DNA of 64,000 bases. Source: a virus. The position numbers and the translations under genes were made by a program. The stretch covers positions 27,801 to 91,800 of IMG/VR virus record IMGVR_UViG_3300021964_007369; one strand, 5' to 3'. This document shows positions 1-21,439 of the stretch, one piece after another. The notes beneath the pieces are model-generated. The model did no database searches. It worked only from the letters and a program-made list of their open reading frames with translations, and had not been told where the DNA came from. The first letter of the stretch is position 1; each line of letters starts with the position of its first letter.

Positions 1-575
1 TGCTTTCGTGTGTTGTGAATATTTGCCAAGTATTCAACTATATCAAGAAATTCATCTATTAAAAATGTTTCTCCGCCTAAGAATGTGTATATTACACTTT
101 CTTTATCTCCAGTGTTATTTTCTATATGTTTATACAAACTTGTAAGAGCCGCTTCTTGCCATTCTGCATCAGGCTCTAAAATAGGTACACCTAATTTTTT
201 TGCCCATAAACTACTTACTTCTGGTATACAATATATGCATGTCTGATTACATTTACTAGAAAGTGCTATTTCAATTCTGTAGGAAAGATCATTTTTTAAA
301 TTAGGTGTTGACTTGTTTAACCAATTGTTCCAAGTGTTGTATTGACTATTAGGGTGGTTAGAGCTACAGGCTTCACAACCTTTAGGAAAATTATTATTTT
401 TTATCCAATACTGTTTTGCTTCTGTTAGTTCTTTGCGGTCGGTCCAAAACTTTGGGTCTGAAATTTCTTCTATTGTAGGTGTTTCAAGTTGTTGTCTTTT
501 ACAACAATTTACAACTTCTTTTCTATGGATGTTTAAGTTTATGTCCGTCCATAACCTACTGCAAGGAGTAATCAT
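1..575 (-). CDS. Radical SAM protein with N-terminal twitch/SPASM-like Cys domain (partial, runs off left edge; not in ORF track)
   Basis: Manual translation from ATG at 575 (TAATG overlap with upstream stop): MITPCSRLW...VNCC...CEAC...SSKCNQTCIYC...FLGGETF; contains CxxxCxxC and GGE motifs. Confidence 0.85.
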   Translation of the reverse strand, partial: MITPCSRLWTDINLNIHRKEVVNCCKRQQLETPTIEEISDPKFWTDRKELTEAKQYWIKNNNFPKGCEACSSNHPNSQYNTWNNWLNKSTPNLKNDLSYRIEIALSSKCNQTCIYCIPEVSSLWAKKLGVPILEPDAEWQEAALTSLYKHIENNTGDKESVIYTFLGGETFLIDEFLDIVEYLANIHNTRK

Positions 576-1333
576 TAGAATGCCTTTGTTATGCTCATTA
601 ACTTTAATACATTTTCCCAAGTTTTTGGTATATTCATTACAAGATGGATACTATCGTTTACCCAACTGTGTGTTCTATGAGTCTTTGTTGTGTCTACATA
701 GTAAACACCGCCGGGCTTTATTGGAACTTTTGTGTGTTCCATTTCCCATTCGAATTCGTCTCTTGTTACATTCCAACTAGGAAATGCAACTACTCTAAAA
801 GTGTCTCTTGTAAGTTTAGGATGATCTTTATGCGGAGGAAAATATCCTCCAGCATTTGCTTTAACTAACATTGTTCTACCTAATGGTTTCCAATAGTCTA
901 ATAATTCATGTAAACTAGGAAGCATATTATATGCTTCTGTAGGAGTGTTGAATTCTGTTTCGCTTAAACGTCTGCCAGCTTTTTTACATGCTTCTGGCAT
1001 ACTCAACCCTTCTTCCATAGAAGCATCAGGTAACCCAAAAAGAGATATTCCTTCTCTGTCGTTCATTATACCTTCTCTACGTAGGTACGGTACCCATCGG
1101 TCATCAAGTGCTTCAACTTCTTTCATAAATTGACTTGGATCTATTTTTATACTTAGAGGCTCCCAAAAACTAAGCATGCCTAATTGAAGTTCACACTTTA
1201 GATCTTCGTTACTAGGATCTAAAGACTCTGGATTGTCTAACCATGTTTGATAATAGTTTGCTTGTGTAGCTCTATTCGCAAGAGGTATTAAATTAAGTTG
1301 TTTACCGTCTTTATCGTATTTTTTATAGTCCAT
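575..1333 (-). CDS. Fe(II)/2-oxoglutarate oxygenase, Asp/Asn beta-hydroxylase-like cupin
   Basis: GGYFPPHKD (HxD) plus distal HRTHSW His; GGVYYVDT...H pattern typical of AspH-like domains. Confidence 0.7.
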   Translation of the reverse strand: MDYKKYDKDGKQLNLIPLANRATQANYYQTWLDNPESLDPSNEDLKCELQLGMLSFWEPLSIKIDPSQFMKEVEALDDRWVPYLRREGIMNDREGISLFGLPDASMEEGLSMPEACKKAGRRLSETEFNTPTEAYNMLPSLHELLDYWKPLGRTMLVKANAGGYFPPHKDHPKLTRDTFRVVAFPSWNVTRDEFEWEMEHTKVPIKPGGVYYVDTTKTHRTHSWVNDSIHLVMNIPKTWENVLKLMSITKAF

Positions 1334-1344
1334 ACTAATATTTA

Positions 1345-2055
1345 TTAGCGGACCACGTTGTTAAACCACTTCTTTGGCTTTTGTCCTGTATGTGTGACAC
1401 CGTCTTTGTATGTTGTAAAGCTGTGGTCTGTATTTGAAATACCTGTTCCGATACCGACGCTTATCATAGGTCTACCTATATAATCTTTGTTAAAATAAAA
1501 TGTTTGATCGTTGAAAGTTACATTTATTTTTTGAAGATTAGAACCAAATCTATTCCAAATTTTTTCAGCATATTCATAACTTGTATTGTTGTCTTGTTTA
1601 ATAGCCCAACCATCTACACAAGCAATTTGACAGGCATCGTATCCTAGTTGTAAAGTTTCGGAAACAAGAATACCAGCATGGAAAGAATTATTTCGTATTG
1701 CTTCTGTATTTTTAGAAATCTTAATATAACCTCTTTGTTCTTCTGTTAATATTTCATTTAGGTCCTGAGGAATTTTAATTTGAAAACTTGTAAACATATA
1801 CGGAGCATCTTGTAACGCCGTAAAATACTCATTGTGTCCTTGGTATTTGTCATCTGTAAAATAAATGTTTTCTACTAACCAATTTTTTAATGCTTCATCT
1901 TCTGGTGTAAGCAAACACCAAACATGATCAATAGATCCTAATTGACTAGGAATGTATTGTATCATTTCTACTAGATTGTCTATATCCTGTTGTGCTGGAA
2001 TGATACTACTGTCAAACGCTCTTACCGTCCACCTATTTTTCCATTTATTTAACAT
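1345..2055 (-). CDS. Nitroreductase-like (FMN-binding) protein
   Basis: N-terminal RWTVRAFD resembling the RRSxRxF motif, IPS resembling APS, QLGYDAC and C-terminal VGIG. Confidence 0.6.
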   Translation of the reverse strand: MLNKWKNRWTVRAFDSSIIPAQQDIDNLVEMIQYIPSQLGSIDHVWCLLTPEDEALKNWLVENIYFTDDKYQGHNEYFTALQDAPYMFTSFQIKIPQDLNEILTEEQRGYIKISKNTEAIRNNSFHAGILVSETLQLGYDACQIACVDGWAIKQDNNTSYEYAEKIWNRFGSNLQKINVTFNDQTFYFNKDYIGRPMISVGIGTGISNTDHSFTTYKDGVTHTGQKPKKWFNNVVR

Positions 2056-3389
2056 TAGCTCTTCTTTAAATTGCTGTGCTCAGATATTTCATTATATTCA
2101 TTATCGTAAATGCCAGGGTATTCTTTATTTAAAATATCTAATTCAGGTATTGCTTCAAATACATTTGTGTCTCTGCTAAAATCTAATACAGCACTTTTTC
2201 TTAAAAAGTTTATAGCACCTTGTTCACTGTGTGGTTTCTCTAATTCGTTATAGAAAGTTTTTAAGTTTTGAGGATTATGCACAAAAGTAGATTTTTCATA
2301 TCTTTTAATTTTTTTTCTAATTTCTTTTTTAAATTTATCAGGTAATACTTGTATGTTAAATGCTTTTGTAAATACCGGATTTAACGCAGGAGTAAATCTT
2401 TCATTGTCGCTTCTGTATAATTCTTTAAATTCTTCTAACATCTCCGGTAGCCTAAAAATATTATAACACCCTAAACTTATGATAGGACTACATCTAATAT
2501 CAGCTTCAACTAACTTACGAATATTAGAACTAACTATTTTCCAGTCAGTTCCGTATCTAATCCATTCAGCCCTTGCACCTAGTTCGTCCACACTATTTTC
2601 AATGTACAATCTATCCTTCTTCCATTTCTTCCAATAGTCGATTACATTTTTTCCTTTATAATCTAACTTTAAAAGATTAGAATTGTATTTCATTTTTACA
2701 TTATATTTTTTAAGATTATCTAATTTTTCTAATATGTACCAATGCTCGTCCATTACAAGTGGTTCGCCGCCTGCAAAATAAATTTTTTCTACATCATGTA
2801 TAGCATCGTCGACCCAACTAATTTTTTCTCCAAAGTTTTCAACTTTATCCATAGCGATAGTATCTTCTTCCGATAATACTAATGCTTGCATTAATCGACT
2901 CCTAGCATTGTCCGACGTCATGCTTTTATACAAACGGTTTGCTTCAATTGTCCACCTACTGCTAAATTGTGGTGTACACATAACGCAAGTCATATTGCAA
3001 ATATTACTAAAACGTAAATCCCAATACCGTATTTTAAAATCTGGCAGTGTACCATCTTCTTGAGTTGTAGGAATTATATCCATTACTTCGTCTGCATAGT
3101 TATGAGTGAAAGCCCATTGCCTAGGACTCTTTACACCAATCTTTTCATAATTTACACATTTATGACAAGTGTCCTCAGGCAATATACCATTAAGCATATC
3201 AACTCTAAGTTTTTTCATTTTGTCACCGTTAAATATTTCATCTATAGTTTTTTCTTTTACATTACCTAAGATTGTAGGATTTGCTCCACGCTGGTGACAA
3301 CAAGGCACAACATCACCGTTAGGATTAATTGCTAAGTGTGACCAAGGATGTATACATAAACTAGTTGATTTTAATTTATAAGGGTTCAT
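2055..3389 (-). CDS. Radical SAM protein, N-terminal twitch/SPASM-like domain
   Basis: CIHPW..VVPCC..CHKC, then CNMTCVMC and AGGEP. Confidence 0.9.
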   Translation of the reverse strand: MNPYKLKSTSLCIHPWSHLAINPNGDVVPCCHQRGANPTILGNVKEKTIDEIFNGDKMKKLRVDMLNGILPEDTCHKCVNYEKIGVKSPRQWAFTHNYADEVMDIIPTTQEDGTLPDFKIRYWDLRFSNICNMTCVMCTPQFSSRWTIEANRLYKSMTSDNARSRLMQALVLSEEDTIAMDKVENFGEKISWVDDAIHDVEKIYFAGGEPLVMDEHWYILEKLDNLKKYNVKMKYNSNLLKLDYKGKNVIDYWKKWKKDRLYIENSVDELGARAEWIRYGTDWKIVSSNIRKLVEADIRCSPIISLGCYNIFRLPEMLEEFKELYRSDNERFTPALNPVFTKAFNIQVLPDKFKKEIRKKIKRYEKSTFVHNPQNLKTFYNELEKPHSEQGAINFLRKSAVLDFSRDTNVFEAIPELDILNKEYPGIYDNEYNEISEHSNLKKS

Positions 3390-3393
3390 ACTA

Positions 3394-4293
3394 CTATTTA
3401 ACTTCCTTTATTTTTTCAGATATCTTTTTGGCAATATGTTTAATACTGTTAATATCGTAATGGTACGGACTTCTGCCTAATCTATGCTGATCGTCTCCAA
3501 CAACTTCTTCCCAATCAATTTCTAATAGTTTTGCTCTATAAGGACGCATCTGATGTTTAATACCTAGATGTATACCTTTTTGAAACCTGTGTACATCATA
3601 CCAACTGTTTACATCAAAATGTTTTCCATTTGTAACTTTGTTTTTAAATATATGTGTAAAATTTCCAGTGACTGGAATATCTTGATAGTATCCTATCTTT
3701 TTGTTAATCCAACGTCTAGCTGGTGGAGTATACACTAATTGTATTCTATCCTCAAATAATCCTGTGACTAATTCAGCAAAACGTCTTCCCCATTCACCTT
3801 GCATATTCCAATTTTCTTTTTGATTCCAAAATCCTCTAAATACTAAGTCGTCATCATATGTACATACATTACGTTTATCGTTCAGTATATCTAATATGTT
3901 TTCAGGAAACTTTAATTTAGTAAGTTCACTTGCTGATTTTTCTTTGATTAGTTGCTTAATTAATGTTACATGTTCTTTATTGTATTGACAACGTGCTTCT
4001 GATTCTCTTGTAAAACTAGCAATTAGATAGTTGTCTTTTTTATTTGTTTTAGGAACTATATCAAAATAATCTTTGCTTACAATTTCTTTGTATATACGTC
4101 TGCCAAACGGATACTTTTTTGCATCACTTTTATTATACCATTTGTCAACAGCATCAGCAATATATCCAATAGGTGAAAACAAACTACCTATAGTAGTTGT
4201 ATCTAATCTTTGAAATGTATGTTGCGGATATTTTTTAATTAGTATTGGTATAGTATCTTCTAATTCACATCCGCCCCAGAGGAAGAAGTTCAT
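3394..4293 (-). CDS. Hypothetical protein, possibly DUF6270/SGNH-like
   Basis: 299-aa ORF coupled in operon; N-terminal WGGCEL and C-terminal HRLGRSPYHY recall the DUF6270 pattern (weak). Confidence 0.45.
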   Translation of the reverse strand: MNFFLWGGCELEDTIPILIKKYPQHTFQRLDTTTIGSLFSPIGYIADAVDKWYNKSDAKKYPFGRRIYKEIVSKDYFDIVPKTNKKDNYLIASFTRESEARCQYNKEHVTLIKQLIKEKSASELTKLKFPENILDILNDKRNVCTYDDDLVFRGFWNQKENWNMQGEWGRRFAELVTGLFEDRIQLVYTPPARRWINKKIGYYQDIPVTGNFTHIFKNKVTNGKHFDVNSWYDVHRFQKGIHLGIKHQMRPYRAKLLEIDWEEVVGDDQHRLGRSPYHYDINSIKHIAKKISEKIKEVK

Positions 4294-5438
4294 ATATCCA
4301 ACTCCGGAACTACATCTACTAAATTTTGATTTCGACTTTCGTCTAACTTTGCAGTATACTCTTTAAATGCATCTAATTTATTTGACCAATCTTCTGCCCA
4401 CATGTAATCTATAATGCCTTGCACTTTAGGCAAATCTATATACGGTCTTAGTCTAAGGGCGGCTAAATTTTTCAAATCTTTCGGTAAACATCTTATGTTT
4501 AGATATTCAGGATGATTTAAAATATTAAAATATATTTTATGTTCATAGGGTAATGCCCATTCAATTAATTTATCTAAGTGTAATATGTTGTACATCTGCA
4601 CTGTACAATGTATTTCAATAGTTGCGTTATAAAGTTTTCTAATATCCTGAAAGTTGCGTTCTATAGTAGCCCAGTTACTAGGATATCGTATGTATCTATC
4701 AAGTTCGCCTGTTGCATCAATACTACAATTTAATTGTACATGTTTAAACTTACTCCATTTCCATATTAAATCTTTAGGAACATTTGTAAGATTAGTGTTA
4801 TACTTTAATTTTATTTTATGTGCTGTTTTATTATCTATAAAATAATCAAGCAATCTATGCTGTTCTTTAATAATAGTTGGTTCGCCACCTGTTAGATATA
4901 TTTCATCGACTGTATTAGCAATGCTGAATAAATTTTCCCAAGTCTTTTCATCTTCAGGCCAATCCATATTACTTAATCGTTTATATTCACTTTCACTTAG
5001 AGCTTCTTCAACTAGATTCCATTCTTTGACCCACATACTACTTGCATACGGATTGCACATTCTACATTTTAAATTACATAAGTTGCCTAACCGTAAGTCC
5101 ACATATTTAATATCAAAAGGTGCATCTACTGTATACTTAATATCTTCTTGCCATTTATGATTCCATGCTTGTCTTGCACTACGCACACCTGCATCTTCTT
5201 CACGGAAACATCTTGTACACATTTCAGGACGTTCACCGTCAAGCATTTGCTTACGTATTTTTTTATATACTTCGCTATTCCATGCTTCTTCTAAGTTATC
5301 TTTGTTTAGTTTAAAAGGGGTGCCATCTTCTTTGGTAATAAAATTTTGTCCAGGAATAGAGTTACAACACACACGAAGATTGCCACTAGCATTGGTAGCT
5401 AGATGCATCCACGGAAGTATACAAAATGTTTTACTCAT
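4290..5438 (-). CDS. Radical SAM protein, N-terminal twitch/SPASM-like domain
   Basis: FCILPW..LRVCC..CTRC; CNLKCRMC; TGGEP. Confidence 0.9.
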   Translation of the reverse strand: MSKTFCILPWMHLATNASGNLRVCCNSIPGQNFITKEDGTPFKLNKDNLEEAWNSEVYKKIRKQMLDGERPEMCTRCFREEDAGVRSARQAWNHKWQEDIKYTVDAPFDIKYVDLRLGNLCNLKCRMCNPYASSMWVKEWNLVEEALSESEYKRLSNMDWPEDEKTWENLFSIANTVDEIYLTGGEPTIIKEQHRLLDYFIDNKTAHKIKLKYNTNLTNVPKDLIWKWSKFKHVQLNCSIDATGELDRYIRYPSNWATIERNFQDIRKLYNATIEIHCTVQMYNILHLDKLIEWALPYEHKIYFNILNHPEYLNIRCLPKDLKNLAALRLRPYIDLPKVQGIIDYMWAEDWSNKLDAFKEYTAKLDESRNQNLVDVVPELDI

Positions 5439-6630
5439 ATCTTTTAAACTCCGGTACTATGTCAAACAGATTAGTGTCTCTACTTGCATCTAATTTTTTA
5501 CTAAATCTTAAAAACTGATCCCAGTTTTCAGATTTTTGTTCAGCAAGTAAAAAATTTAAATTAGTATTAATAAATCTTTCTATACGCTTTTTTCGAGAAG
5601 TACTTATATCGTATGTTTTAACTTTTTCTAAATATGCTTTGTATTTCTTTTCTGCTGTATCCTTTAATCCCACAGGCAATATTTGGGGGTTAATAAATTT
5701 AGGTGCCCATGCAATGTTTCCGTGTACAGGTAAATCTAATTCAAATGTAAAGTAGTCATATGCTTCAGGCAGTCCCATTACATTCCAAGCACTATAACAT
5801 AATGCCGCTCTGGCTTCAAACTTATCACCTAGTTCTAATTTAACTTTCTTTAAGTTTTCTGCAATTTGTTTTGTGTTTGCTTCAGTACGAATATATTCAT
5901 TTAGTTCTGGATGACCGTCTATACTCAAACTTATATCAACACTTCTAAAATCTTTCCATGCTTCTAGTGCATCAAACTTTCCGTACTTTAGTTTACTTAA
6001 ATTTGTGCTGTACTTAACTGTGATATGTTCACCATGGGGCCTCAGTGCCTCTAATACCTTATAATGCATAGGATCCATTAGAGGTTCTCCGCCAGCAAAC
6101 TCCACTATTTCCATAGTTGGTGCTAGTTTTTCTATGTTAGCTAAGAACTCTGGATTGTTATAGTTTTCTTGTCTAGTTGTATCATTTTTCCAACCTATGT
6201 CTTCATATTCGTCTTTGACTTTAGCCCAATCTTTTAACCATGTCGTTGAAAGGTCTGGCTTACATGTTCTACAACGGAAGTTACATAAGTTACTAAGTTT
6301 TAATTCTAGCACTGGAATATTAAACGGTACTTGTGTATGTTCTTCGTCTTCATCAAACGGATACATCCAATTGCGGGTCTTGTTCATAGTTTGACGCATA
6401 CTAACACTGCCTTGGTCTTCTAATTGATAACAAGGCCAACAACCTTCTGGACGTTCATCGTTCAAAAGTTCTTTACGCAACTTTTGCATATGTTTATTAT
6501 TCCAAATTTGTTCTAGTGTTTCATCAGCAATATTACCTACAGTTTGCATACTTCTACAACAAGGAGCAACGTTACCGTCAACTCTTGTGCTTAGATGTAT
6601 CCAGGGTAATATACAAAAATTATTCTTCAT
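5431..6630 (-). CDS. Radical SAM protein, N-terminal twitch/SPASM-like domain (start moved to MKNNFC)
   Basis: FCILPW..VAPCC..CWPC; CNFRCRTC; AGGEP; ATG at 6630 matches the N-termini of its paralogs. Confidence 0.9.
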   Translation of the reverse strand: MKNNFCILPWIHLSTRVDGNVAPCCRSMQTVGNIADETLEQIWNNKHMQKLRKELLNDERPEGCWPCYQLEDQGSVSMRQTMNKTRNWMYPFDEDEEHTQVPFNIPVLELKLSNLCNFRCRTCKPDLSTTWLKDWAKVKDEYEDIGWKNDTTRQENYNNPEFLANIEKLAPTMEIVEFAGGEPLMDPMHYKVLEALRPHGEHITVKYSTNLSKLKYGKFDALEAWKDFRSVDISLSIDGHPELNEYIRTEANTKQIAENLKKVKLELGDKFEARAALCYSAWNVMGLPEAYDYFTFELDLPVHGNIAWAPKFINPQILPVGLKDTAEKKYKAYLEKVKTYDISTSRKKRIERFINTNLNFLLAEQKSENWDQFLRFSKKLDASRDTNLFDIVPEFKRYE

Positions 6631-7744
6631 TCCAAATTTTCCTAAACTTTGGTTCAACATCAAACAACTTTTCGTTTCTGATTTTGTCTAATTTCTCAGT
6701 ATATTCTTTAAACTTCTTCCATTTGCTTTTATCTCGATTTTGAGTTTTTAACCATTTAACAATGTTATCAAAGCTAGGTTCTTTACTGTATCTTGCAATT
6801 AACTTTCTCTTTGTCTTGTCTGGTAAATTAGCAGGGTCTTGATAAGTCGGAAAATAACTAATATTACCAAATGCTTTACTATAATTTTCATGAGGGCCAA
6901 AATATTTTTTTATAACAGATAGCATTTGTTGTAGATGAAAGATATTATACATTGTAACTGTAATACTAATACCAGGAATAAAATTGGGCAGTCGGTCTCG
7001 CATATACTCCATATTTTTTACTGCTGTTTCAAGTGGATGATTAGGTCCGCCTCTTATATATTTGTAAAGTTCTCCTGTAGCTTCTAAACTTAGATTACAT
7101 TTTATTTTTTTGAACTGTTTTAATTTTTCAATATAATAATCACTTATGCCTGTGCCATTTGTAAAAACAACAAGTGTTGTATTTCTTTTAAAATTATCAT
7201 CTAATCTATCTATAAAGTTTAAGAACTGGTCAGTAACAAACGGCTCGCCACCTTTTACTTCTAATACAAAGTCGTCATAAGTTACATTATTACAATATTC
7301 AACAATTTGATCTAACCTATAATCAGGCATATCATATTTTGGTGTTATAACTCTTTCTAAATCAAATCCGCCTTCTACAAGTTTCTTTTCATCAGCAATC
7401 CATTTGGTGCTATTTCTACTTTCGCACATTCTGCATTTTAAATTACATGTATTACCAAATGTAATATCCAAATAAGTAATCTCGCCTTCTTTGGCGTCGC
7501 CCTTATTTCCTCGCCATTCTCGTCTACTCGGAATGCCTTTTTCTTCTGTAATCTTACAAACTTCACAACCTTTGTGAAGTAATCCTTTTTCTTTTACCTC
7601 ATTGTATGCGTTTGCATACCAATCAAATATATTTTCTTCGCCTTCTGGAGACACTGCATCTGTAAATATACAACAAGGTTTAATCGTACCTCTGTTGTTT
7701 ATATTCATATGATGCCATGGGCTTAAACAAAATTTCTCAGACAT
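6620..7744 (-). CDS. Radical SAM protein, N-terminal twitch/SPASM-like domain (start moved to MSEKFC)
   Basis: FCLSPW..IKPCC..CEVC; CNLKCRMC; KGGEP. Confidence 0.9.
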   Translation of the reverse strand: MSEKFCLSPWHHMNINNRGTIKPCCIFTDAVSPEGEENIFDWYANAYNEVKEKGLLHKGCEVCKITEEKGIPSRREWRGNKGDAKEGEITYLDITFGNTCNLKCRMCESRNSTKWIADEKKLVEGGFDLERVITPKYDMPDYRLDQIVEYCNNVTYDDFVLEVKGGEPFVTDQFLNFIDRLDDNFKRNTTLVVFTNGTGISDYYIEKLKQFKKIKCNLSLEATGELYKYIRGGPNHPLETAVKNMEYMRDRLPNFIPGISITVTMYNIFHLQQMLSVIKKYFGPHENYSKAFGNISYFPTYQDPANLPDKTKRKLIARYSKEPSFDNIVKWLKTQNRDKSKWKKFKEYTEKLDKIRNEKLFDVEPKFRKIWNEE

Positions 7745-8714
7745 GTTCTTTCCATTTCGTAGTATTGAGATCTGCCGCACAATTACACCATTGCTTTGCA
7801 CACAATATAGGATCTTGTTCTAGGGTAAAACCTGTTTCTATGTTACCCAATATGCCGCCCTGTTTGCAAGTAGCTCTATATACACTACCATCGTTATCAA
7901 TCATAAGCGTTTCTAAGCCTGCCATACACTTCCAACCTTTAAATGTATTCCATTTATTCTTTGTTAAAGTGTTTACATTATCTAGCCAATTTTTTTCTTT
8001 AGTCCATAGTTCGCAGTTTTCTTTATTAGTGCCTGCTTTGTTAAAACTATCCAAATATTCTAATTCTTCGTCGTTGTAATATCCTGTTGCTCCGCCCCAT
8101 TGAACTCCTTCAAATTCCATACCGCTTGCACCAGGCGGATTAAATTCGCCTTGCTTGTTTGTCATAGGACGTATTCTACGCATTACATATTGTATATCAT
8201 TTGTTTGTAGCCAGTCTACAACACCTTTAACTTCATCTAAGCGTCCAGGCAAATACATTAGATGAACATGTATATGTTTTGCTTTATCTTTTAAGCCTAG
8301 TAATACTTCTTTCATGTGTGGTATACGCAGATGTTCAAAGTGCCAACTAAAAATTATATTATCAATATACTCTAATGCTTTGGTATATTTTTCTAAAGGC
8401 AAACTTCCATTACTAATAATACTTGTTTCATCTACATTATATTTTTTAAACAATGCAAGTATATCTAATATTTGCGGATGTACAAACGGCTCGCCGCCTG
8501 TAAGGCTCATTCTAATTTTCTTATCTTTATAAAACTCTCTTAGTGTTTTGATTGTGTATTCAAAACTTTCAAGTGGCATATGTTTGCTTGTATTATCGTG
8601 TAGATCAGCACCACAGTAACTACAATCAAAGTTACAGCGTTTGCCCATATTCCATTCTATACGTACCCAAGATTTATATTTCTTAGCACTATGCTCTACA
8701 CGTACTAGATCCAT
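7737..8714 (-). CDS. Radical SAM protein with C-terminal twitch/SPASM-like domain
   Basis: CNFDCSYC near N-terminus; TGGEP; C-terminal CMAG..RATC..CAKQWCNC. Confidence 0.9.
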   Translation of the reverse strand: MDLVRVEHSAKKYKSWVRIEWNMGKRCNFDCSYCGADLHDNTSKHMPLESFEYTIKTLREFYKDKKIRMSLTGGEPFVHPQILDILALFKKYNVDETSIISNGSLPLEKYTKALEYIDNIIFSWHFEHLRIPHMKEVLLGLKDKAKHIHVHLMYLPGRLDEVKGVVDWLQTNDIQYVMRRIRPMTNKQGEFNPPGASGMEFEGVQWGGATGYYNDEELEYLDSFNKAGTNKENCELWTKEKNWLDNVNTLTKNKWNTFKGWKCMAGLETLMIDNDGSVYRATCKQGGILGNIETGFTLEQDPILCAKQWCNCAADLNTTKWKEHV

Positions 8715-10120: not shown

Positions 10121-10127
10121 ACTGTAC

Positions 10128-13465: not shown

Positions 13466-14471
13466 TAAATTGTTCCTTTAGCCATTCAAAGTCATTAATT
13501 TTTTTGATTGCATCAGTGTTGCCTTTGTTAGCAAGTCCATACTGTCTGCCAGCTCTTGCACCTTTGATAGCATATTCGCCAAACGGTGCTCCGTTGTTTT
13601 TCGTACACCATATTTCCAAACGCTCATTAGTTTCATCGTCTTTTTGTCTATCAATAACTTTACTTGCAAGTTTACAACATTCTCTAAATGCACTTTTCCA
13701 TGTAGCAAACTCATTTGAATTAAAACTTGTAATACACGACATTTGATCCACTGCTTTAAACTTATTACTAATACTAGTTGTCATATCTGCTGTATCAACA
13801 TTCATGTCAATAGTCTTTTGTGTTGGAAATAATTTAATGCCTCCATATCCGTACACTAGATCATTTATTGGATTTCGACTACGGAAAACATGTACTGCAT
13901 CTTTATTCCAACACTCTACTTGGTAATCAAAATTAAATTCATCTACTACAGTTGCATCGCCATCTACAATATAAAACATATCTGTAGTTGCTAGTTTGGC
14001 GGCTTCAATATGTGCTTGGTGTATTCCTTTTACATCTTCGACTCTTTTGCAGGGGAAACGTCCATTAAGTAATCTATAATTGTCGTCGGCTGTTGGTTCT
14101 TTATAACTTATCATCACTATGTCATACTTAGGTATGATAGGATTACTTGCAACTATATCTAATTGTTTTTTCTTAGCAAAGAATCTATAACTTAGTTCTT
14201 GTTTACTTGGAGTTGCATTATTCGGAAACAAACACATACCATCATAGTGTTTACCGTTTTTAAAGATATGCGTATACTCGGTACTATGCGAATCTACTGT
14301 ATAATTAAAATCATAGTCTACTCTTATGTCATCCCATATAGCATAAAAATATTTTGTTAAACATATTTCTTTTGCATGGTCAAAGTTCGTTGCTTTCTTT
14401 AGTACGGGAATTTGTTTTTTGTGTGCATTATAGTTCTTTGTATTGCTACCTACATATATGACGTCATACAT
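13452..14471 (-). CDS. GT-A fold (GT2-like) glycosyltransferase with degenerate N-terminal duplicate domain
   Basis: FYIVDGD DxD motif; YGYGGIKLFP; paralog of 17917-18840. Confidence 0.7.
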   Translation of the reverse strand: MYDVIYVGSNTKNYNAHKKQIPVLKKATNFDHAKEICLTKYFYAIWDDIRVDYDFNYTVDSHSTEYTHIFKNGKHYDGMCLFPNNATPSKQELSYRFFAKKKQLDIVASNPIIPKYDIVMISYKEPTADDNYRLLNGRFPCKRVEDVKGIHQAHIEAAKLATTDMFYIVDGDATVVDEFNFDYQVECWNKDAVHVFRSRNPINDLVYGYGGIKLFPTQKTIDMNVDTADMTTSISNKFKAVDQMSCITSFNSNEFATWKSAFRECCKLASKVIDRQKDDETNERLEIWCTKNNGAPFGEYAIKGARAGRQYGLANKGNTDAIKKINDFEWLKEQFNANT

Positions 14472-15193
14472 TCGTACACCTCCTTTGCAAAAATTTCGTG
14501 CATTTGTTCAGTTGGATGTGACCCTGGTAATCTTGTATGCATTTTATTACTATAATCTAGTAACGTTTGACCAAAGTTTACTTTTACATCAAGTAAATTA
14601 TATAATTCGCAATCACGATTCTTTGTAGGGTCAATAGAAAAATGACACATTCCTGAATCTATTATTAACACAGGAATGTTTCTTGATGCTAATAAATTTT
14701 TTGTTCCAGTAATTACATTATATGTACGCCATAGGTTGTCGTAATCATTTGGCTCTGCTAACAAATTTGTTAACCAACTAGGACGTTGAGGGAGAAAACT
14801 TCTAAAATTATATTCAGTATGTTCACTGTGCATTGCATGACCAAATCTTGCAGGGTGTGTCAACATAATTATTACTAGATCGGGCTTACGGAAATTTCTT
14901 GATATTTGTTTGAGAACACGCCAACATATTTCTTCGTTACTAATTCCGCCCATAGAAACATTTTGTACTTCAAAATACGGATCTAATTTTTGTAACTTGG
15001 CAGGCCAAGCACGATCTCGTTGTCCGTTGAGTACTTCTTTGTATTTTGGTTTGTCATGATTCCACAAATTTGCTAATTGTTTCTGATGTTGTTCATGCAG
15101 GTTTTTGTTTACATCGCTTTCAAGATACCCTGGTACAAGTTCTACCAACTCATCACCTGCCGTAAAACTACAACCTGAAGTTATGATTTCCAT
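14450..15193 (-). CDS. SGNH hydrolase/acyltransferase-like protein
   Basis: SGCSFTAG, NVSMGGISN, C-terminal SHPTEQMH. Confidence 0.65.
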   Translation of the reverse strand: MEIITSGCSFTAGDELVELVPGYLESDVNKNLHEQHQKQLANLWNHDKPKYKEVLNGQRDRAWPAKLQKLDPYFEVQNVSMGGISNEEICWRVLKQISRNFRKPDLVIIMLTHPARFGHAMHSEHTEYNFRSFLPQRPSWLTNLLAEPNDYDNLWRTYNVITGTKNLLASRNIPVLIIDSGMCHFSIDPTKNRDCELYNLLDVKVNFGQTLLDYSNKMHTRLPGSHPTEQMHEIFAKEVYECMTSYM

Positions 15194-16536
15194 GAGTCGT
15201 AAACTCCTTTACAATAGTCATAAAACGCAGTATATTCAGGAAACGTGTTTAATAAGTTAGTTCCAATACGTTTATCATTTTCTGTAAAGAAACTATAAAA
15301 GTCTCTTTGTCCTTGTTTAATTTTTTGCGGATCAACAGGATTTTGATACATATAATCACGTACACGTTGCATCTTTGCAATTTCAACACTAGTAAAATAG
15401 TCTTTGTTGTTACTCATGTACTCTAAGTGTTCATCCATAAACTTGTTAAACATTTGAGGTAATATATTGATCATCCAATGCGGCGGCTCTTTTAGATATG
15501 GCGTATCAAATGCAAGTGCTTCTTTTCCGTATATCTTGCGCCAATGCATAACACGTTGTAAAAAGTTTTGGAATGTTGCTACACATAATACGTTAAATGT
15601 ACACATGATGTTAACTTTGAATCCACGCTTAATTGCTTCTTCAAAGTTTCTCTCCCAATGATCACATTTTAATCCTGTACGCATATACTCTGCTTGTTCT
15701 CCCCAACCTTCAATACTTGTAAACAAACTAAACTTTCGTATCTTCTTTTGATCTAATAAACTTTGTACTCTATCATACATCCTGTCCATTTTTGCAGTAG
15801 TAACACCTAAGTTACTATTAATGCTAATTTCTAATTGTGGTGCTGGTTCTTTTTCTAATAAGTCAAAGAACTGCATTGCACCGGGATTCATTAGAGGCTC
15901 GCCTCCTGTAATTCTAAGTGTGTGTAGATCTTTACGTAGATCAGGCCACCATTTCCAAAATGCCTCAATATAAGGATTTTCATCCTTGGGTGCGTAGTAA
16001 CGTCCGTTATCTAAAAATTCTGTGCCGTATTGATTATATGTTAAATCATAATTGCCATGTTTCTTAATCTCATCCATCCACTTTGTACTTGCTTGGGGAC
16101 AACAGTATCCACAACGATAATTACACCCGTTACCAAAACTAACTTCTAAATAACGTGGATTTACATTTTCTAACCAATGCTTTTTTGATATCTCTTCAAT
16201 CTCTGGTTCAGACCAATCACTTGCACTGTGTATCATCCTATCTGATATTTGATCTCCTTCAAGGTCTTCAATGTTCCAGCAATAGTAACATTCTTCAGGA
16301 CGCTCACCTTCTAACATTTTTTTACGCTGTTGTTTTTTCCATGCTGTATTGTGTAAAGCACTTGGATCAGCTTTTATTTCAGCTAGAGGTATATGCTGTG
16401 GACGTGGATGATAGCAACTATGATTATCACCTGTGTGCAAATACAATGTTTCATGAAGCCACTTCATTGTGCAAAATCCTTTGCCAATTTTGTTTAATCT
16501 ATCACGTACATCTTTAATATCGTCAACTCTACTCAT
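15181..16536 (-). CDS. Radical SAM protein, N-terminal twitch-like domain (SCYHP subtype)
   Basis: FCTMKW..HSCYHP..CYYC; CNYRCGYC; TGGEP. Confidence 0.9.
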   Translation of the reverse strand: MSRVDDIKDVRDRLNKIGKGFCTMKWLHETLYLHTGDNHSCYHPRPQHIPLAEIKADPSALHNTAWKKQQRKKMLEGERPEECYYCWNIEDLEGDQISDRMIHSASDWSEPEIEEISKKHWLENVNPRYLEVSFGNGCNYRCGYCCPQASTKWMDEIKKHGNYDLTYNQYGTEFLDNGRYYAPKDENPYIEAFWKWWPDLRKDLHTLRITGGEPLMNPGAMQFFDLLEKEPAPQLEISINSNLGVTTAKMDRMYDRVQSLLDQKKIRKFSLFTSIEGWGEQAEYMRTGLKCDHWERNFEEAIKRGFKVNIMCTFNVLCVATFQNFLQRVMHWRKIYGKEALAFDTPYLKEPPHWMINILPQMFNKFMDEHLEYMSNNKDYFTSVEIAKMQRVRDYMYQNPVDPQKIKQGQRDFYSFFTENDKRIGTNLLNTFPEYTAFYDYCKGVYDSWKS

Positions 16537-17920
16537 AATAATCCTTTAATGACGGGAACACATCTACAAAATTTGTATTTCTACGTTTGTCATGTTGTTG
16601 AAAGAATAACTTAAAATTCTTTTTTGCTGTTTCTCTGTCAAAGCCTGTATCAGCCTTAATCCAGTTTATTAGTCTTTTAACTTTGTTTATTTCAAAATCA
16701 CTAAATCCTTGGAATTCATTTTTATCACCGTCCTTATTATATTCCATATATTCTACACATTGTTCTAACTGTATAACACGTTCGGGCATTAGCTTAGGAT
16801 TCATATAATCAGGATTTGTTAATTGTGGAATATCAAACCATATCATTTGTCTTTGTTTGCTGTACTGTGTTCGTAACTTGTGTATTTGTTGCATATAATT
16901 AAATATCCCATTATAGCTAAGTGTATTGAATGTTATGATAAATGTTAAACTGTGTTTATCACATTGCTCTAAATATTGTACAACATTTTTATAAAATACA
17001 TCAAAGTCTAAACCGTTACGAATATATTCCGCTTGTTTGCCCCAACTGTCTAAACTTGCAAACAACATAAAATGATCTAGGTTAGGTGTAAGTGTTTGCA
17101 TACTATTAATAAACTTTTGCCATTGTCCTTTAGGAGGGCAACAGTTACTTGTAATACTCATATGCAAATCTTCTTTAGGATTTTCTTTTACATAATCAAA
17201 CATTTTAAAAGTATTTTTATCCATCAACGGTTCGCCACCGGTCATTCTAAATGTTTGAAGTGTAGGATAAATTTCTGGTAACCATTTCCAAAATGCATTT
17301 AAGTACATGTTGTCAGGACTGTTATCTACCTTTTCCATATACTGCATATCATTATGCTTGCGATTATGTAAATTGTACGGTCCTTCTTTTTTAATTTCTT
17401 TCATCCATTCTGTACTCAATATAGGAGAACAATATGAACACTTAAAATTACATGCTTGGTTAAAATTAACTTCTACATATCTTGGGCGGGCGTTGCCATC
17501 CATACCTAATTGCTTTGCTTCTTCTATAAGACCTGGTTCGTATACATCTTTACTTCTATATGCTCTATCACTTAGTTGTGAACCACTGTCTTCAGTTTGC
17601 CAACAGAATTCACACTCAGGTGGGCGTATTCCGTTAAGCATCATACCACGCTGTTCTTTTTTATGCTTGGTATTATGTAAGGCGCTGTTATCATCTTCGA
17701 GCTCTGTTTTTGGAATGAGATGACTTTTGGGATGATAACAGCTATGTGTCTTTCCGGTCGGTATATGTATGCTTACATTAAACCATTTGGCTAGACAAAA
17801 ACTTGGGCTAACTTCATTAAGTTTTTCTAACACGACTTCAGCATCGTGCATATATCGACTTTCAAACTTGCCGTCGATTTTTCTTAATTCATTACCTTTT
17901 ATGTTTCTATTATATTTCAT
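16529..17920 (-). CDS. Radical SAM protein, N-terminal twitch-like domain (SCYHP subtype)
   Basis: FCLAKW..HSCYHP..CEFC; CNFKCSYC; TGGEP. Confidence 0.9.
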   Translation of the reverse strand: MKYNRNIKGNELRKIDGKFESRYMHDAEVVLEKLNEVSPSFCLAKWFNVSIHIPTGKTHSCYHPKSHLIPKTELEDDNSALHNTKHKKEQRGMMLNGIRPPECEFCWQTEDSGSQLSDRAYRSKDVYEPGLIEEAKQLGMDGNARPRYVEVNFNQACNFKCSYCSPILSTEWMKEIKKEGPYNLHNRKHNDMQYMEKVDNSPDNMYLNAFWKWLPEIYPTLQTFRMTGGEPLMDKNTFKMFDYVKENPKEDLHMSITSNCCPPKGQWQKFINSMQTLTPNLDHFMLFASLDSWGKQAEYIRNGLDFDVFYKNVVQYLEQCDKHSLTFIITFNTLSYNGIFNYMQQIHKLRTQYSKQRQMIWFDIPQLTNPDYMNPKLMPERVIQLEQCVEYMEYNKDGDKNEFQGFSDFEINKVKRLINWIKADTGFDRETAKKNFKLFFQQHDKRRNTNFVDVFPSLKDYYE

Positions 17921-18840
17921 TCAATATCTATAAACTGCTGATTACTATTTCTACTAGGATTTTGATATACTGTTTTAAAGAAAGCACTTTGTTCTGGATC
18001 TAAAGGATCAGTTGCAATAGGAATATCTAATTCATGTTTAAGTGTTTCTCCTAGTCCCATAATTTCGTATGGCAACTTATCTTCAGTAATTCCACTATAA
18101 TTCTTTTTCCATATATCATTTAGGTATTCAAAGTCACGTACATTTACATAGTCCCAATCAGTACACATAGTTTTATACAATCCTTCTCTTGCTCCATAGA
18201 TTGCCCAATTACCATTTTCTACATCTGCACCTACCATTAACCAAATCCAAAGTCTATGCAAATTTTTCCAATGACCGTTTAAGAATTCTTGCTTGGTAGA
18301 TTTTACACCTCTGTCAAGTGCCATCTTAACTCCTTCACGGAATCCAGCACGCCAGGCTTGTTGTGGAGTATAATTATTCCACACATCAGAATAGCAACTA
18401 TTTTGTTGTATATACTTTAAGTCCCAACAAAAGTCTACCTGTGCATGTGGATTATCCGGATCAGCATTCTCGTGTGTTTTCATATTAAGTACAAACTCTT
18501 TAGGCCAACATTTAAGTCCACCGTTGCCGTATAACAATCCGTTAATTACATTCTTGCCACACCAACTAATAACACAATTTTCTAAATCTGTATGTTCATC
18601 AAAGTCTATTTCTTGCTCTAAGAACTTTGGGTGTACTGTGTTATCGCCATCAACTGTAATAAATCTGCTTGTTTCACTTAGGTTAGCACAGGCTTTGTGT
18701 GCGGCGTCTGAGCCTTCTACACCGTGTACACGTTTTGCCCATGGTACTTTAGTAAGTAAATCTGCATAATTTTTTTCAGCATTAGGTTCATCATAACTTA
18801 AATAGATGATATCACAGTCAATAACTTTAAATTTGTTCAT
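17917..18840 (-). CDS. GT-A fold (GT2-like) glycosyltransferase
   Basis: LSYDEP..KRVHGVEG..AH..FITVDGD; YGNGGLKCWP; AWRAGFRE. Confidence 0.7.
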   Translation of the reverse strand: MNKFKVIDCDIIYLSYDEPNAEKNYADLLTKVPWAKRVHGVEGSDAAHKACANLSETSRFITVDGDNTVHPKFLEQEIDFDEHTDLENCVISWCGKNVINGLLYGNGGLKCWPKEFVLNMKTHENADPDNPHAQVDFCWDLKYIQQNSCYSDVWNNYTPQQAWRAGFREGVKMALDRGVKSTKQEFLNGHWKNLHRLWIWLMVGADVENGNWAIYGAREGLYKTMCTDWDYVNVRDFEYLNDIWKKNYSGITEDKLPYEIMGLGETLKHELDIPIATDPLDPEQSAFFKTVYQNPSRNSNQQFIDIE

Positions 18841-19361
18841 GTTAGGTCCTTGTAATTATATTTTGCAAATTGGCGTTTTGTATAGATACTAAAGTTCTTA
18901 CTACTATCGAATAAGCAAGAATTATCTTTTCGTAAATCAACTCTAAATAAATGATATAATATGTGAGGATTATCTTTAGCTGTAATGCTAAAACTTGTTT
19001 CACTGTCTAGGCTTGTTGTATCTAATATTTTTTTAATTCTGTCATTTATATTAATTTTAAGTTTATCACCGTCATAGGTTATTTCAATATCTGCATCATC
19101 TATTCCGGATTCAATTTTTGTATATCCTTGATATGTTTGTAGTATTTCTGCTTCATGCTTTAGTTCAAACTTTGAGTCTATCGTATTAAACACAACTCTA
19201 TAATCTGCTTTATTATCTTTGAAGTTTAAAATTCTTTCAACAGATGAAAAATCAACTTCAATATTATCATATCCTTCTGCTTTACTTGGTCCTACAGAAT
19301 AAATTTTTCCAGTTGCAATTTCAAAATTCACAATCATTTGTGGAGTACAATCTATATTCAT
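18837..19361 (-). CDS. Hypothetical protein
   Basis: 174-aa ORF with ATGA-type overlaps on both sides. Confidence 0.7.
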   Translation of the reverse strand: MNIDCTPQMIVNFEIATGKIYSVGPSKAEGYDNIEVDFSSVERILNFKDNKADYRVVFNTIDSKFELKHEAEILQTYQGYTKIESGIDDADIEITYDGDKLKININDRIKKILDTTSLDSETSFSITAKDNPHILYHLFRVDLRKDNSCLFDSSKNFSIYTKRQFAKYNYKDLT

Positions 19362-20176
19362 AACACTTTACTTTCGTATTTTTTAATTAAACTTTCTGTA
19401 ACAAAATGATTTTCTGTATAATGAAATATACCTTCTTGAATAAAATTACCAATTATAAGTTTTACATCATCTGTAATTGTATAAGATACTCTGTCCTGCC
19501 AAGTAGAAGATTCGTTGCGCCAATCCTGGGCTCTTGATTTCATATGTGTAAATGTAGGCAAATTAATTTTAGGATTAGTAACTTGTTCTTCGATGTCCAT
19601 TGCTTTGATAGCAATGCTTGCAGTTACATCCATACTTGCATTTTTAGGATATTTTTTAGGAACATATTTTCCATAAAATAATTCTCTGTTGTTAATGATT
19701 AATTCTAAAAATTTATAAAATTCTAATGCTAAATTAGATTTTTTAAAATAATGATATCCAAAGTAAACGTTAGGTAAGTTGTTTACAGTAAATGCTTCTC
19801 TATAATAATCACTAGTTACTATATTATTTCTATATGTATGTACTTTGTTTGTAAAGAACAGTTCATAATTTTCAAGTAATTTCCAATAATGGCTTACATC
19901 TGTAAGAAATAACATATCGCTATCTAATATAACAGTTTCTTCATACGGTGATATATGATATAGTTTCCATCTATGTTCTACAGCATAACGTTGCTCTTCG
20001 ATCCAAGGTATATCTATAATATTATCAAATAGGCTTTTGTATTTTTCTGGCACTGGCGTGTCTGTTGCAATACTTACGCTATCAATTTGTTGTGTGTGCT
20101 TTATACTCATTGCACATAGACACGCTTGTATTACATATTCAGGTCCTGTAGCAAGTATTAGATATCCTTTACTCAT
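19358..20176 (-). CDS. GT-A fold glycosyltransferase (GT8/GT71-like)
   Basis: SPYEETVILDSD DxD motif, C-terminal FTHMK; paralog of 20169-21029. Confidence 0.7.
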   Translation of the reverse strand: MSKGYLILATGPEYVIQACLCAMSIKHTQQIDSVSIATDTPVPEKYKSLFDNIIDIPWIEEQRYAVEHRWKLYHISPYEETVILDSDMLFLTDVSHYWKLLENYELFFTNKVHTYRNNIVTSDYYREAFTVNNLPNVYFGYHYFKKSNLALEFYKFLELIINNRELFYGKYVPKKYPKNASMDVTASIAIKAMDIEEQVTNPKINLPTFTHMKSRAQDWRNESSTWQDRVSYTITDDVKLIIGNFIQEGIFHYTENHFVTESLIKKYESKVL

Positions 20177-21029
20177 ATATCATTTCCTCACGTATACGAT
20201 CGTTAAGACTAAATTTATTCATTACATGCATATCAAGTCCTTTTGTTGAAATTGCATTGTAATGACCAGTTGCTCCTTGTTGTTCAACTAAAAATGTATT
20301 TTCGCCTGCTTCCATTTCTATAAAAATGTCTCTATCTAATGTATAATATAATTTTCCTGGAAATTCTTTAGCATATCTTCCTGTTGTACCGTTTAGAATA
20401 TGTAATGCTATACTAAATGCATGATCATTTCTAAATGTTGTTGTACCAACATCATAGATTAAACTGTAATGTTCCCAATTACGTACTACATGTCTTAGTG
20501 TATCAAAAAATAACGAAGCATATTTTCCTTTGCGAAAGAAAAAACAAGTAGCCCAGTAAAAATCTATCCCAGTATCATTAATGTAGTCAAACTCATAGTC
20601 ATGTCTCCAACCTGATATATCAGTAGCGTCTTTATAAATTAGTAAATCATTTTTATCCTGAAATGCTTTTAGTAATTTTTTACTGTTAATCACATAATCT
20701 GTATCAATAACAATAGTTTCATCGTACGGCGACAGGTCATATGCCATATGCCTGTGCGAATTTCTAAATTGTAATACCTTGTAAGACGTTGACCCGTCAT
20801 AGTATCGTTTATAATTTAAAGGTAGTATACGTCGATTTTCTAAATCTATAATTTTATCAAATAGATTTCTATACTTTTTATATTTGCTGTTGAAATGAGC
20901 TCTATCAGTGGTTACTAACGTTACAGGTATGTTTAAAAATTGTTTGGCTCTTTTAGCAACAAAACACGCTTGAAGTACATAGTCAACATTATCATTATTT
21001 ACAGCAAATAGTAATATGCCTCTACTCAT
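20169..21029 (-). CDS. GT-A fold glycosyltransferase (GT8/GT71-like)
   Basis: SPYDETIVIDTD DxD motif, RNDHAFS, HVMNK. Confidence 0.7.
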   Translation of the reverse strand: MSRGILLFAVNNDNVDYVLQACFVAKRAKQFLNIPVTLVTTDRAHFNSKYKKYRNLFDKIIDLENRRILPLNYKRYYDGSTSYKVLQFRNSHRHMAYDLSPYDETIVIDTDYVINSKKLLKAFQDKNDLLIYKDATDISGWRHDYEFDYINDTGIDFYWATCFFFRKGKYASLFFDTLRHVVRNWEHYSLIYDVGTTTFRNDHAFSIALHILNGTTGRYAKEFPGKLYYTLDRDIFIEMEAGENTFLVEQQGATGHYNAISTKGLDMHVMNKFSLNDRIREEMIYE

Positions 21030-21369
21030 ATTTCAGCAACCCTAAAACTTTTCTATTTTTTATTAACTTATTATACTCTGTATGAAATCTATTTGAAGCA
21101 GTAAAATACACGTTCTTAATTTCTTCTAAGAAATCAGTAGGTGTCACTTCAACAGGTTGAGAATTGTCGTCAATAAGAATGAGAGAGTCTTGATTGCTGG
21201 TTGCCATATAACTAACAAAATTTATGAGTTCAGGATCTACTGTAAATTTAGAACCGTTGTGGTAATAAATTAGATCTTCTTGATACTTTTCGTTTAGTAT
21301 ACGCTTTTGATTGTTTAATGTTACATTAAAGTTAGAGAACTCTAATGCTTTTTCTAGTCTTTTGTCCAT
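21022..21369 (-). CDS. Hypothetical protein, first gene of the enzyme operon
   Basis: 115-aa ORF with AAGGA RBS, directly downstream of the promoter at 21393-21421. Confidence 0.7.
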   Translation of the reverse strand: MDKRLEKALEFSNFNVTLNNQKRILNEKYQEDLIYYHNGSKFTVDPELINFVSYMATSNQDSLILIDDNSQPVEVTPTDFLEEIKNVYFTASNRFHTEYNKLIKNRKVLGLLKYE

Positions 21370-21392
21370 ATCTCATTCCTTATACTTGTTAC

Positions 21393-21421
21393 AGTATACG
21401 ATATTTAAGACTAAATGTCAA
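21393..21421 (-). promoter_or_regulatory. Sigma70-type promoter TTGACA-N17-TATACT with embedded late-type TAAATA
   Basis: Minus strand reads TTGACA tttagtcttaaatatcg TATACT upstream of ATG at 21369. Confidence 0.75.
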
Positions 21422-21439
21422 GTAAAATATTAGATCTGA

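Follow-up and report, generated by a model that had tools for sequence, protein, structure and literature searches.

What would a virus do with eleven radical S-adenosylmethionine (SAM) enzymes encoded in one run of genes directly behind its tail fibers? The question is raised by a window of 64,000 nucleotides (nt) of viral DNA, contig positions 27801 to 91800 of the 91.8-kb IMG/VR virus record IMGVR_UViG_3300021964_007369, whose left part is occupied by an island of enzyme genes. CheckV puts the completeness of the record at 25%, and because a protein homolog search places close homologs on contigs of 343 to 347 kb, we regard it as a fragment of a marine jumbo phage. An earlier interpretation made from the letters alone (the sequence-only reading) had described 24 co-oriented, tightly packed open reading frames (ORFs) in positions 1 to 21421, continuing past the left edge, as an assembly line for a heavily tailored glycan. 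ORF calls agree with this layout: the 24 ORFs (23 of at least 80 amino acids [aa] and one of 75 aa) are all on the minus strand, neighboring genes nearly all overlap by 1 to 20 nt or lie no more than 11 nt apart, and the single true gap in the region measures 71 nt (21370 to 21439). From position 21369 down to the left edge every gene is on the minus strand, and the run extends nine genes farther, one of them on the plus strand, to contig position 21019, 6.8 kb beyond the edge; these nine include the 11th radical-SAM gene, two TauD oxygenases, and a fatty-acid-desaturase-like protein. The island is therefore larger than the 21 kb first described, at about 28 kb with about 33 genes. We consider the chances about even that it encodes a cytoplasmic jumbo-phage pathway that builds a glycan and heavily tailors it. 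Coordinates below are window positions on the minus strand unless stated otherwise.

The radical-SAM proteins themselves fall into two architectures. Ten proteins with a CxxxCxxC motif had been counted in the window, and all of them match either Radical_SAM or NF033640; with the one past the left edge there are 11, among which PF04055 reaches its 29.5-bit cut-off in eight places and falls just under it in three, always at E ≤ 1.3e-5. In eight of the 11, the cysteine domain comes first (PF13186, residues ~6 to 108) and the PF04055 core after it (~113 to 324). This permuted order is that of NF033640, the curated NCBIfam sequence model "twitch domain-containing radical SAM protein" (N_Twi_rSAM; curated cut-off, 170 bits), with which the eight share an N-terminal four-cysteine domain followed by CxxxCxxC. 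Seven paralogs reach 233 to 417 bits over the whole 398-position model: NTwi1 (16529 to 17920; 315 bits), NTwi2 (15181 to 16536; 312 bits), NTwi3 (8714 to 10147; 417 bits), NTwi4 (6620 to 7801; 233 bits), NTwi5 (5431 to 6663; 356 bits), NTwi6 (4290 to 5438; 405 bits), and NTwi7 (2055 to 3389; 320 bits; SPASM at residues 12 to 78 and Radical_SAM at 127 to 324). The eighth, NTwi8, scores 155 bits, below the cut-off; the window holds its C-terminal part (3 to 620, with the motif CNQTCIYC), and the complete gene encodes 418 aa (L001:17164-18420). No NF033640 member above the cut-off was found in 14 control genomes. When the eight paralogs are aligned, C6, C24, C74, and C77 are invariant, as are CxxxCxxC and a GGE motif, at pairwise identities of 21 to 35%. 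The other three keep the conventional order, end in a Cys-rich tail, and match generic models only. Two of these are rSAM_b (7737 to 8717; PF04055, 50 bits), with its Cys motif at residue 28, a Cys-rich C-terminal tail, and generic NCBIfam matches far under their cut-offs, and rSAM_c (10128 to 11195; PF04055, 27 bits), which has a SPASM/twitch-like Cys-rich C-terminal region and weak matches to W-cofactor maturase and MftC models.

We asked whether this many paralogs could reflect recent tandem duplication. On a tree built from 174 representatives, none of the window paralogs pairs with another as a sister tip, and the nearest neighbor of each always comes from another phage locus. NTwi3, NTwi5, and NTwi6 have orthologs of their own at 60 to 81% identity in many loci (81% for NTwi3 in L018 and L040), and NTwi6 alone has 2645 homologs at E ≤ 1e-10, chiefly in marine metagenomes. 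The expansion therefore consists of ancient, diverged paralogs rather than recent tandem duplicates, and the separate orthologs of several of them argue for distinct functions that have been retained. Two N-twitch copies in related genomes (G002:C1:223219-224286 and G003:C1:33266-34327) each contain a single in-frame TGA, which could mark a pseudogene, a sequencing error, or a recoded codon.

Four DxD glycosyltransferases (GTs) had been proposed to accompany these enzymes, and all four are supported, two by a GT-A fold model and two by a weak GT8 profile. GT-A1 (17917 to 18840) and GT-A2 (13452 to 14471; with an N-terminal extension, and a member of alignment A4) belong to one GT2-like "DGD" family. 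The AlphaFold2 (AF2) model of GT-A1 (pLDDT 90.7) has a GT-A Rossmann-like fold, and the fold of GT-A2 is taken from this paralog's model. Foldseek matched the GT-A1 model to ThuS and SunS, the capsid glycosyltransferase A64R of PBCV-1, TarP, and WrtF; VIA gave Z scores of 8.3 to 10.3 over 121 to 227 residues, mostly to GT-A glycosyltransferases, with the nucleotidyltransferases IspD and MobA in the same list at a Z of ~9. After beta-4, the family carries the motif VDGDN, VDADN, or VNGDN, in which D66 is invariant in 31 sequences and the first position is Asp or Asn. Sequence models do not recover it: Pfam GT2 models gave no match to the window GT-A proteins at E < 0.01, PDB profile searches with the family returned no match, and PF00535 or PF13641 (GT2) was found on 7 of the 120 GT-A1 homologs listed. 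At least 7998 homologs exist, and the names shown are all "hypothetical protein" or uninformative gene-call lines. Together with the model, these results support the assignment of both proteins to a predicted, unannotated family of GT2-like GT-A glycosyltransferases that Pfam misses. The closest GT-A1 homologs (P0123 to P0242) are ~530 to 540 aa long, compared to 307 aa here, so many relatives carry an extra domain of ~230 aa. The GT8-like pair, GT8a (20169 to 21029) and GT8b (19358 to 20176; phrog_1903), has no match in Pfam, and the profile of the two (A6) matches glycogenin-1 (GT8) weakly, at E = 0.002 and over the N-terminal 105 residues only, which is the DxD half. Counting this pair, we credit the island with four GT-A-fold proteins.

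Comparison with 80 related viral loci shows that the island consists of two juxtaposed modules. Module A runs from the fiber genes through a 115-aa protein, GT8a, GT8b, an unknown, and GT-A1 to NTwi1 and NTwi2, while module B runs from GT-A2 through a methyltransferase, a 75-aa protein (s75), rSAM_c, and NTwi3 into further radical-SAM and redox enzymes. Directly upstream lie four tail-fiber/baseplate-fiber genes (21440 to 27737) with a Peptidase_G2 domain, Collar, and Gp10_C. The first island gene, encoding the 115-aa unknown (21022 to 21369), has homologs in 8 loci, always between the fiber genes and GT8a; the unknown 174-aa protein between GT8b and GT-A1 (18837 to 19361) has no match. Module A stands after tail-fiber genes in the present record (G000) and in every relative checked, namely, in G001, G002, and G005 as well as in seven diverged loci, at protein identities of 25 to 50%. 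Module B recurs as a block. NF033640 copies number 14 in the complete 328-kb relative G001 and 11 in each of three partial relatives. The GT-A family turns up in 31 of these 80 viral N-twitch loci and in 18 of 79 bacterial ones; in 11 of the former and 8 of the latter, its gene is the one immediately upstream of an N-twitch gene. Members of the methyltransferase family were counted in 28 viral loci and 15 bacterial ones. Between one and four distant N-twitch copies are found in cultured vibriophages; Vibrio phage K566 has four, yet lacks the GT-A, methyltransferase, and 75-aa families.

Bacterial counterparts were sought in genomes with an alignment of four N-twitch paralogs as the query. The family occurs mostly in Bdellovibrionota, and also in Acidobacteriota, Gammaproteobacteria, and Reichenbachiella, at one to six copies per 20-kb locus. 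One Bdellovibrio isolate has a pair of N-twitch genes surrounded by five GT2 genes, a methyltransferase gene of the same family, and another radical-SAM gene. More broadly, the 142 nearest neighbors on 30 long bacterial contigs are led by GT2 (16), other radical-SAM (14), and GT1/GT4 (5) genes. That glycosyltransferases accompany the family repeatedly, in genomes as different as these two kinds, is what favors a pathway that builds and tailors a glycan. About 35 switches between virus and bacterium are needed on the 174-tip tree, so the genes move between the two, and some of the "bacterial" contigs may be mis-binned phage. We also observed, in a metagenome-assembled genome of Pseudobdellovibrionaceae, a 722-aa protein (L093:3208-5376, plus strand) in which a GT-A "DGD" domain (residues 2 to 229) is fused to an N-twitch radical-SAM protein (240 to 686). 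Adjoining the Bdellovibrio GT2/N-twitch cluster is a 1355-aa Peptidase_S74 protein (L089:17251-21318, minus strand). The Peptidase_S74 intramolecular-chaperone (IMC) domain is a hallmark of phage-like trimeric fibers, and one fiber of the phage studied here has the related Peptidase_G2 IMC domain. Peptidase_S74 proteins also occur near N-twitch loci in Bdellovibrio and Bacteriovoracaceae (L155:14860-15354, L122:14304-14804, and L114:12769-13263); these three are ~165 aa long, with little beyond the chaperone domain.

Further tailoring enzymes surround the radical-SAM genes, and the methyltransferase-, nitroreductase-, and Fe/2-oxoglutarate (2OG) hydroxylase-like calls made earlier are supported by fold, by profile, and by motif plus profile, respectively. 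The AF2 model (pLDDT 91.9) of the methyltransferase (12623 to 13465) is that of a class I SAM-dependent enzyme with an N-terminal helical domain; Foldseek matches include PsoF, SibL, NRMT, and DnrK (E = 5e-8, probability 1.0), at least 500 reach E ≤ 0.001, and nearly every one listed is a SAM-dependent methyltransferase or a relative, such as spermidine synthase. A PDB profile search with this family returned no match. The nitroreductase-fold flavoenzyme NTR1 (1345 to 2055) belongs to a profile (A9) that matches PDB nitroreductases at E = 8.7e-9, and it has a paralog on the plus strand at L001:15794-16504. The Fe(II)/2OG hydroxylase-like cupin cupC (575 to 1333) has an HxD...H motif; among the three Fe/2OG cupins of the island, H168, D170, and H219 are invariant in 17 sequences (alignment A7), and their profile matches a beta-hydroxylase (7v4o) at E = 1e-7 and proline hydroxylases as well. 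Of the genes upstream, two have TauD matches (E = 1e-16 to 1e-18), and another encodes a homolog of membrane fatty-acid desaturases. For the SGNH- and kinase-like calls, the motifs are present and sequence models add weak matches. SGNH/GDSL-like protein 2 (11872 to 12636) has a GDS block at residue 11 and matches Lipase_GDSL at E = 0.039; SGNH-like protein 1 (14450 to 15193), with GCS replacing GDS, is recognized by its motif blocks without support from hidden Markov models. Their alignment (A11) conserves S13, N78, G82-G83, and H238 (blocks I/II/III/V), and a PDB profile search with the pair found no match. The putative small kinase-like protein (163 aa; 11182 to 11673) has HRDLSLNN and IDADS motifs and weak Pfam and PDB kinase matches (E = 0.005 to 0.5), which leave the call unconfirmed. 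Cullin and cholera-toxin entries in the PDB profile searches were set aside as low-complexity or chance matches.

The cellular location of the pathway can be judged from the same proteins. No signal peptide was found in any island protein, a hydropathy scan places transmembrane segments in the desaturase-like protein only, and both SGNH-like proteins start right at the catalytic block. For these reasons we place the acceptor and the pathway in the cytoplasm.

One gene had escaped the first ORF list. The 75-aa s75 (11663 to 11890) fills an apparent 200-nt gap at 11673 to 11872 and is found in 24 related loci at 54 to 80% identity, always right after the methyltransferase gene. With a mean column identity of 73% (alignment A8), it is more conserved than the neighboring enzymes, and conservation is even along its length, with no cysteine, no leader/core pattern, and no conserved C terminus. 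The ESM Atlas, Pfam/PHROGs, and a PDB profile search gave no fold or family. In a single metagenomic record (P0121; 436 aa), s75 is fused in frame to an rSAM_c ortholog; the fusion could be real or could come from a lost stop codon or a sequencing error. Weak evidence of this kind hints that s75 and rSAM_c may work together, and s75 is a candidate partner or scaffold of rSAM_c, or it could be a substrate.

How the island might be expressed bears on when its product is made. The late-promoter cores that the sequence-only reading had assigned to several operon genes were not recovered: the T4-type late motif TATAAATA has three occurrences in 64 kb, where ~14 would be expected, and none inside the island; one copy is at 22408 to 22415, upstream of a 308-aa fiber gene. 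The best promoter match in 10 to 29 kb is sigma-70-like (TTGACA-17-TATACT, 11/12; 21393 to 21421, minus strand) and sits in the 71-nt gap at the island head, between the last fiber gene and the first island gene. No terminator was found between the fibers and the island. It is possible that expression is early and also occurs by late read-through.

Gene content, folds, modules, glycosyltransferase linkage, and synteny are what the sequences show; from these we infer which acceptor is served and what each enzyme does to it, every function being assigned by homology, fold, or association. The GT8-like and GT2-like transferases would move sugars from nucleotide sugars onto an acceptor, each module opening with a GT-A glycosyltransferase before its NF033640 radical-SAM enzymes. 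In each N-twitch paralog, the SAM cluster and the four-cysteine auxiliary cluster would abstract a hydrogen atom at a different position, and this radical step could yield oxidation, epimerization, dehydration, or C-C chemistry, as in BtrN, NeoN, and AprD4. Finishing steps might then be carried out by the Fe/2OG hydroxylases, nitroreductase-fold flavoenzymes, methyltransferase, SGNH-type acyltransferases or esterases, and kinase-like protein. At least for module A, the likeliest acceptor is a virion host-recognition protein, such as a tail fiber, or another cytoplasmic target. Because module A is conserved behind fiber genes, the gene order makes fiber or virion decoration the leading candidate.

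Several observations pull the other way and hold our confidence in this glycan pathway to an even level. No N-twitch member has a known substrate, and the argument is one from association. In G001, module B, to which most of the island's radical-SAM genes belong, lies more than 100 kb from a fiber-like gene, and the 14 NF033640 copies are spread over at least seven places, most of them distant from fibers; the expectation that the cluster follows the fibers thus holds for module A and fails for module B. The phage-island partners that Pfam recognizes are other radical-SAM proteins, Asp/Asn beta-hydroxylases, QueC-like ATPases, B12-radical-SAM proteins, and nitroreductases, and the 25 commonest partner families include no classical sugar-nucleotide enzymes and no Pfam glycosyltransferases. 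Of 19 Bdellovibrionota genomes, only 3 (including two close relatives) have a Peptidase_S74 fiber beside an N-twitch locus, and since about one would be expected by chance (a rough estimate), we treat this adjacency as a lead only. A heavily tailored glycan nevertheless remains the best-supported product; what falls away from the original proposal is the fiber linkage of module B and the late-promoter argument.

Might the substrate be a peptide instead? Characterized SPASM/twitch enzymes are mostly peptide maturases, which counts against a glycan, and the weak NCBIfam matches in the island are to such models. In maturation of the kind seen for peptides made on the ribosome and modified after translation (RiPPs), the radical-SAM, Asp/Pro-hydroxylase-like, and nitroreductase-fold enzymes would modify residues of s75 or of a fiber protein, with the GT-A proteins acting like glycocin S/O-glycosyltransferases; ThuS and SunS are the top Foldseek matches of the GT-A model, the cupins resemble beta- and proline hydroxylases, Asp_Arg_Hydrox is the commonest non-radical-SAM partner in phage islands, and the highly conserved s75 adjoins rSAM_c and is once fused to it. 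We nonetheless think this unlikely, given that s75, the only small ORF found (overlapping small ORFs were not searched exhaustively), is evenly conserved and has no cysteine, leader/core pattern, or conserved C terminus, that Pfam and PHROGs reveal no RiPP recognition element (RRE) or PqqD-like domain, leader protease, or exporter among the island genes, that GT2 runs dominate the bacterial loci, and that the lone fusion may be a sequencing error. A diffusible small molecule that manipulates the host or competitors, for example an aminoglycoside- or nucleoside-like metabolite, a modified lipid, or a cofactor, would suit the desaturase-like protein, the TauD oxygenases, the nitroreductases, and a methyltransferase of small-molecule type (PsoF, SibL, and DnrK), as well as the scattering of N-twitch copies around the genome, untied to one structure. 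The sugar-acting twitch enzymes BtrN, NeoN, and AprD4 belong to antibiotic pathways. Yet module A is conserved beside fiber genes, and Pfam scans detected no inositol or sugar cyclase, nonribosomal peptide synthetase, polyketide synthase, or aminotransferase, which makes such a molecule highly unlikely in our judgment.

If the product is a glycan, it could still be destined for something other than the virion. Remodeling of the host surface during infection (lipopolysaccharide [LPS], O-chain, or capsule), with superinfection blocked as a result, is the interpretation favored for the GT8 and radical-SAM cassettes in a hypervariable tail-fiber cluster (PMC7029224), where O-chain modification was proposed. 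The sigma-70-like promoter at the island head would permit the early expression that this calls for. GT8 enzymes are typically LPS glycosyltransferases. Against this, Pfam and hydropathy find no flippase, polymerase, GtrA/B/C, Wzx/Wzy, AT3 acyltransferase, or periplasmic component in the island, an absence that weakens the case for host O antigen, and the SGNH proteins begin with their catalytic block and have no signal peptide; eleven radical-SAM enzymes, moreover, far exceed any serotype-conversion cassette known to us. We therefore rate host-surface remodeling as quite unlikely. Hypermodification of the phage's own DNA, in which a modified base would be glycosylated or tailored by radical chemistry, appears very improbable, even though phage glycosyltransferases often act on DNA according to the review literature and QueC-like genes occur in some related islands. 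The complete G001 (328 kb, 14 N-twitch copies) has no ThyA-type hydroxymethylase (PF00303), and the same GT-A/methyltransferase/N-twitch module is found among GT2 genes in bacterial chromosomes, for which two reasons we consider DNA glycosylation unlikely. PF00303 likewise finds nothing in the partial G002, G003, and G005 and gives one 13.8-bit match, below the cut-off, on the 91.8-kb fragment itself, and PF01702, the TGT model, matches neither this contig nor any of four relatives.

Comparison with characterized systems supplies partial parallels to the proposed glycan pathway. BtrN, NeoN, and AprD4 consist of a radical-SAM core and one auxiliary 4Fe-4S (twitch) domain, which is C-terminal. 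The island enzymes resemble them in combining a core with a predicted auxiliary twitch domain in a glycan-related context but differ in that the twitch is N-terminal and that no specific sequence relationship is detectable. Virion glycosylation is on record for mycobacteriophages, at the capsid and tail tube, and chlorovirus PBCV-1 has A64R, which is among the top Foldseek matches; in these systems, virus-encoded GT-A enzymes work on structural proteins in the cytoplasm. To our knowledge, the chlorovirus and mycobacteriophage virion glycosylation systems lack radical-SAM enzymes, and the present island is known from its genes alone. Sactipeptide, ranthipeptide, and mycofactocin clusters share with the island SPASM/twitch-type enzymes, several tailoring enzymes, and a small conserved ORF by a radical-SAM gene; unlike them, the island has an N-terminal auxiliary domain, and it yielded neither a leader/core precursor nor an RRE, protease, or exporter.

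The claim that such a cluster has no phage precedent needs softening. NF033640 is a curated model, a pelagimyophage host-recognition cluster has GT8 genes and radical-SAM cassettes beside tail fibers (PMC7029224), and a T4-like marine genome has 12 radical-SAM genes (PMC5332604). These are marine T4-like myophages that share with the present phage fiber genes followed by GT8-type genes and radical-SAM cassettes, and many radical-SAM genes per genome; the relatives found here are jumbo phages of 236 to 347 kb. Unlike the present analysis, the two papers list annotations only and do not describe the family, its permuted order, the conserved module, or the bacterial counterparts. The part of the claim that stands concerns function: our literature search found no functional study of the NF033640 family and no paper citing the accession, and in the literature searched we found no description of the scale or age of the expansion, of the GT-A/methyltransferase/75-aa/radical-SAM module, of its sharing between phages and predatory bacteria, or of its function.

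New enzyme chemistry comes in large part from radical-SAM enzymes, and here a family of permuted order is maintained at 11 to 14 copies per genome in abundant marine jumbo phages, with thousands of homologs in ocean metagenomes. As the family is tied to three unannotated families (GT2-like, methyltransferase, and 75-aa), identifying the product would define several new enzyme functions together. The same work might reveal whether the host-recognition apparatus of large phages is chemically decorated, a point that matters for host range and for phage-host arms races in the ocean. Smaller versions in cultured vibriophages (KVP40 relatives and K566) and in Bdellovibrio isolates make these questions testable at the bench. 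We can only speculate that the N-twitch proteins form a new class of radical glycan- or glycoprotein-editing enzymes that, with the GT2-like family, the methyltransferase, and the 75-aa partner, variably coat trimeric host-recognition fibers, as a toolkit common to marine jumbo phages and predatory Bdellovibrionota; taken as a whole, this picture is doubtful.

Megablast of the island and of the right end of the window against GenBank phages gave no match, and Pfam and PHROGs gave none for 14 island ORFs, among them an unknown 299-aa protein (3394 to 4293) with one homolog, in L040. IscA- and IscU-type Fe-S assembly genes were not found on the fragment, a result that is uninformative at 25% completeness. 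GC content across the island is 31 to 36%, the same as in the remainder of the window. Just beyond the fiber genes, a giant ORF of 4948 aa (28370 to 43216, minus strand) contains CBM_5_12 carbohydrate-binding modules and an FG-GAP repeat and weakly matches the tail-protein family DUF2460; it probably encodes a giant baseplate or fiber protein. Just outside the left end of the island, a plus-strand gene (L001:9787-10926; contig 19787 to 20926) encodes an Mtd_N domain, the N-terminal domain of the major tropism determinant, at E = 1.7e-9, and receptor-binding-type genes therefore flank the island on both sides.

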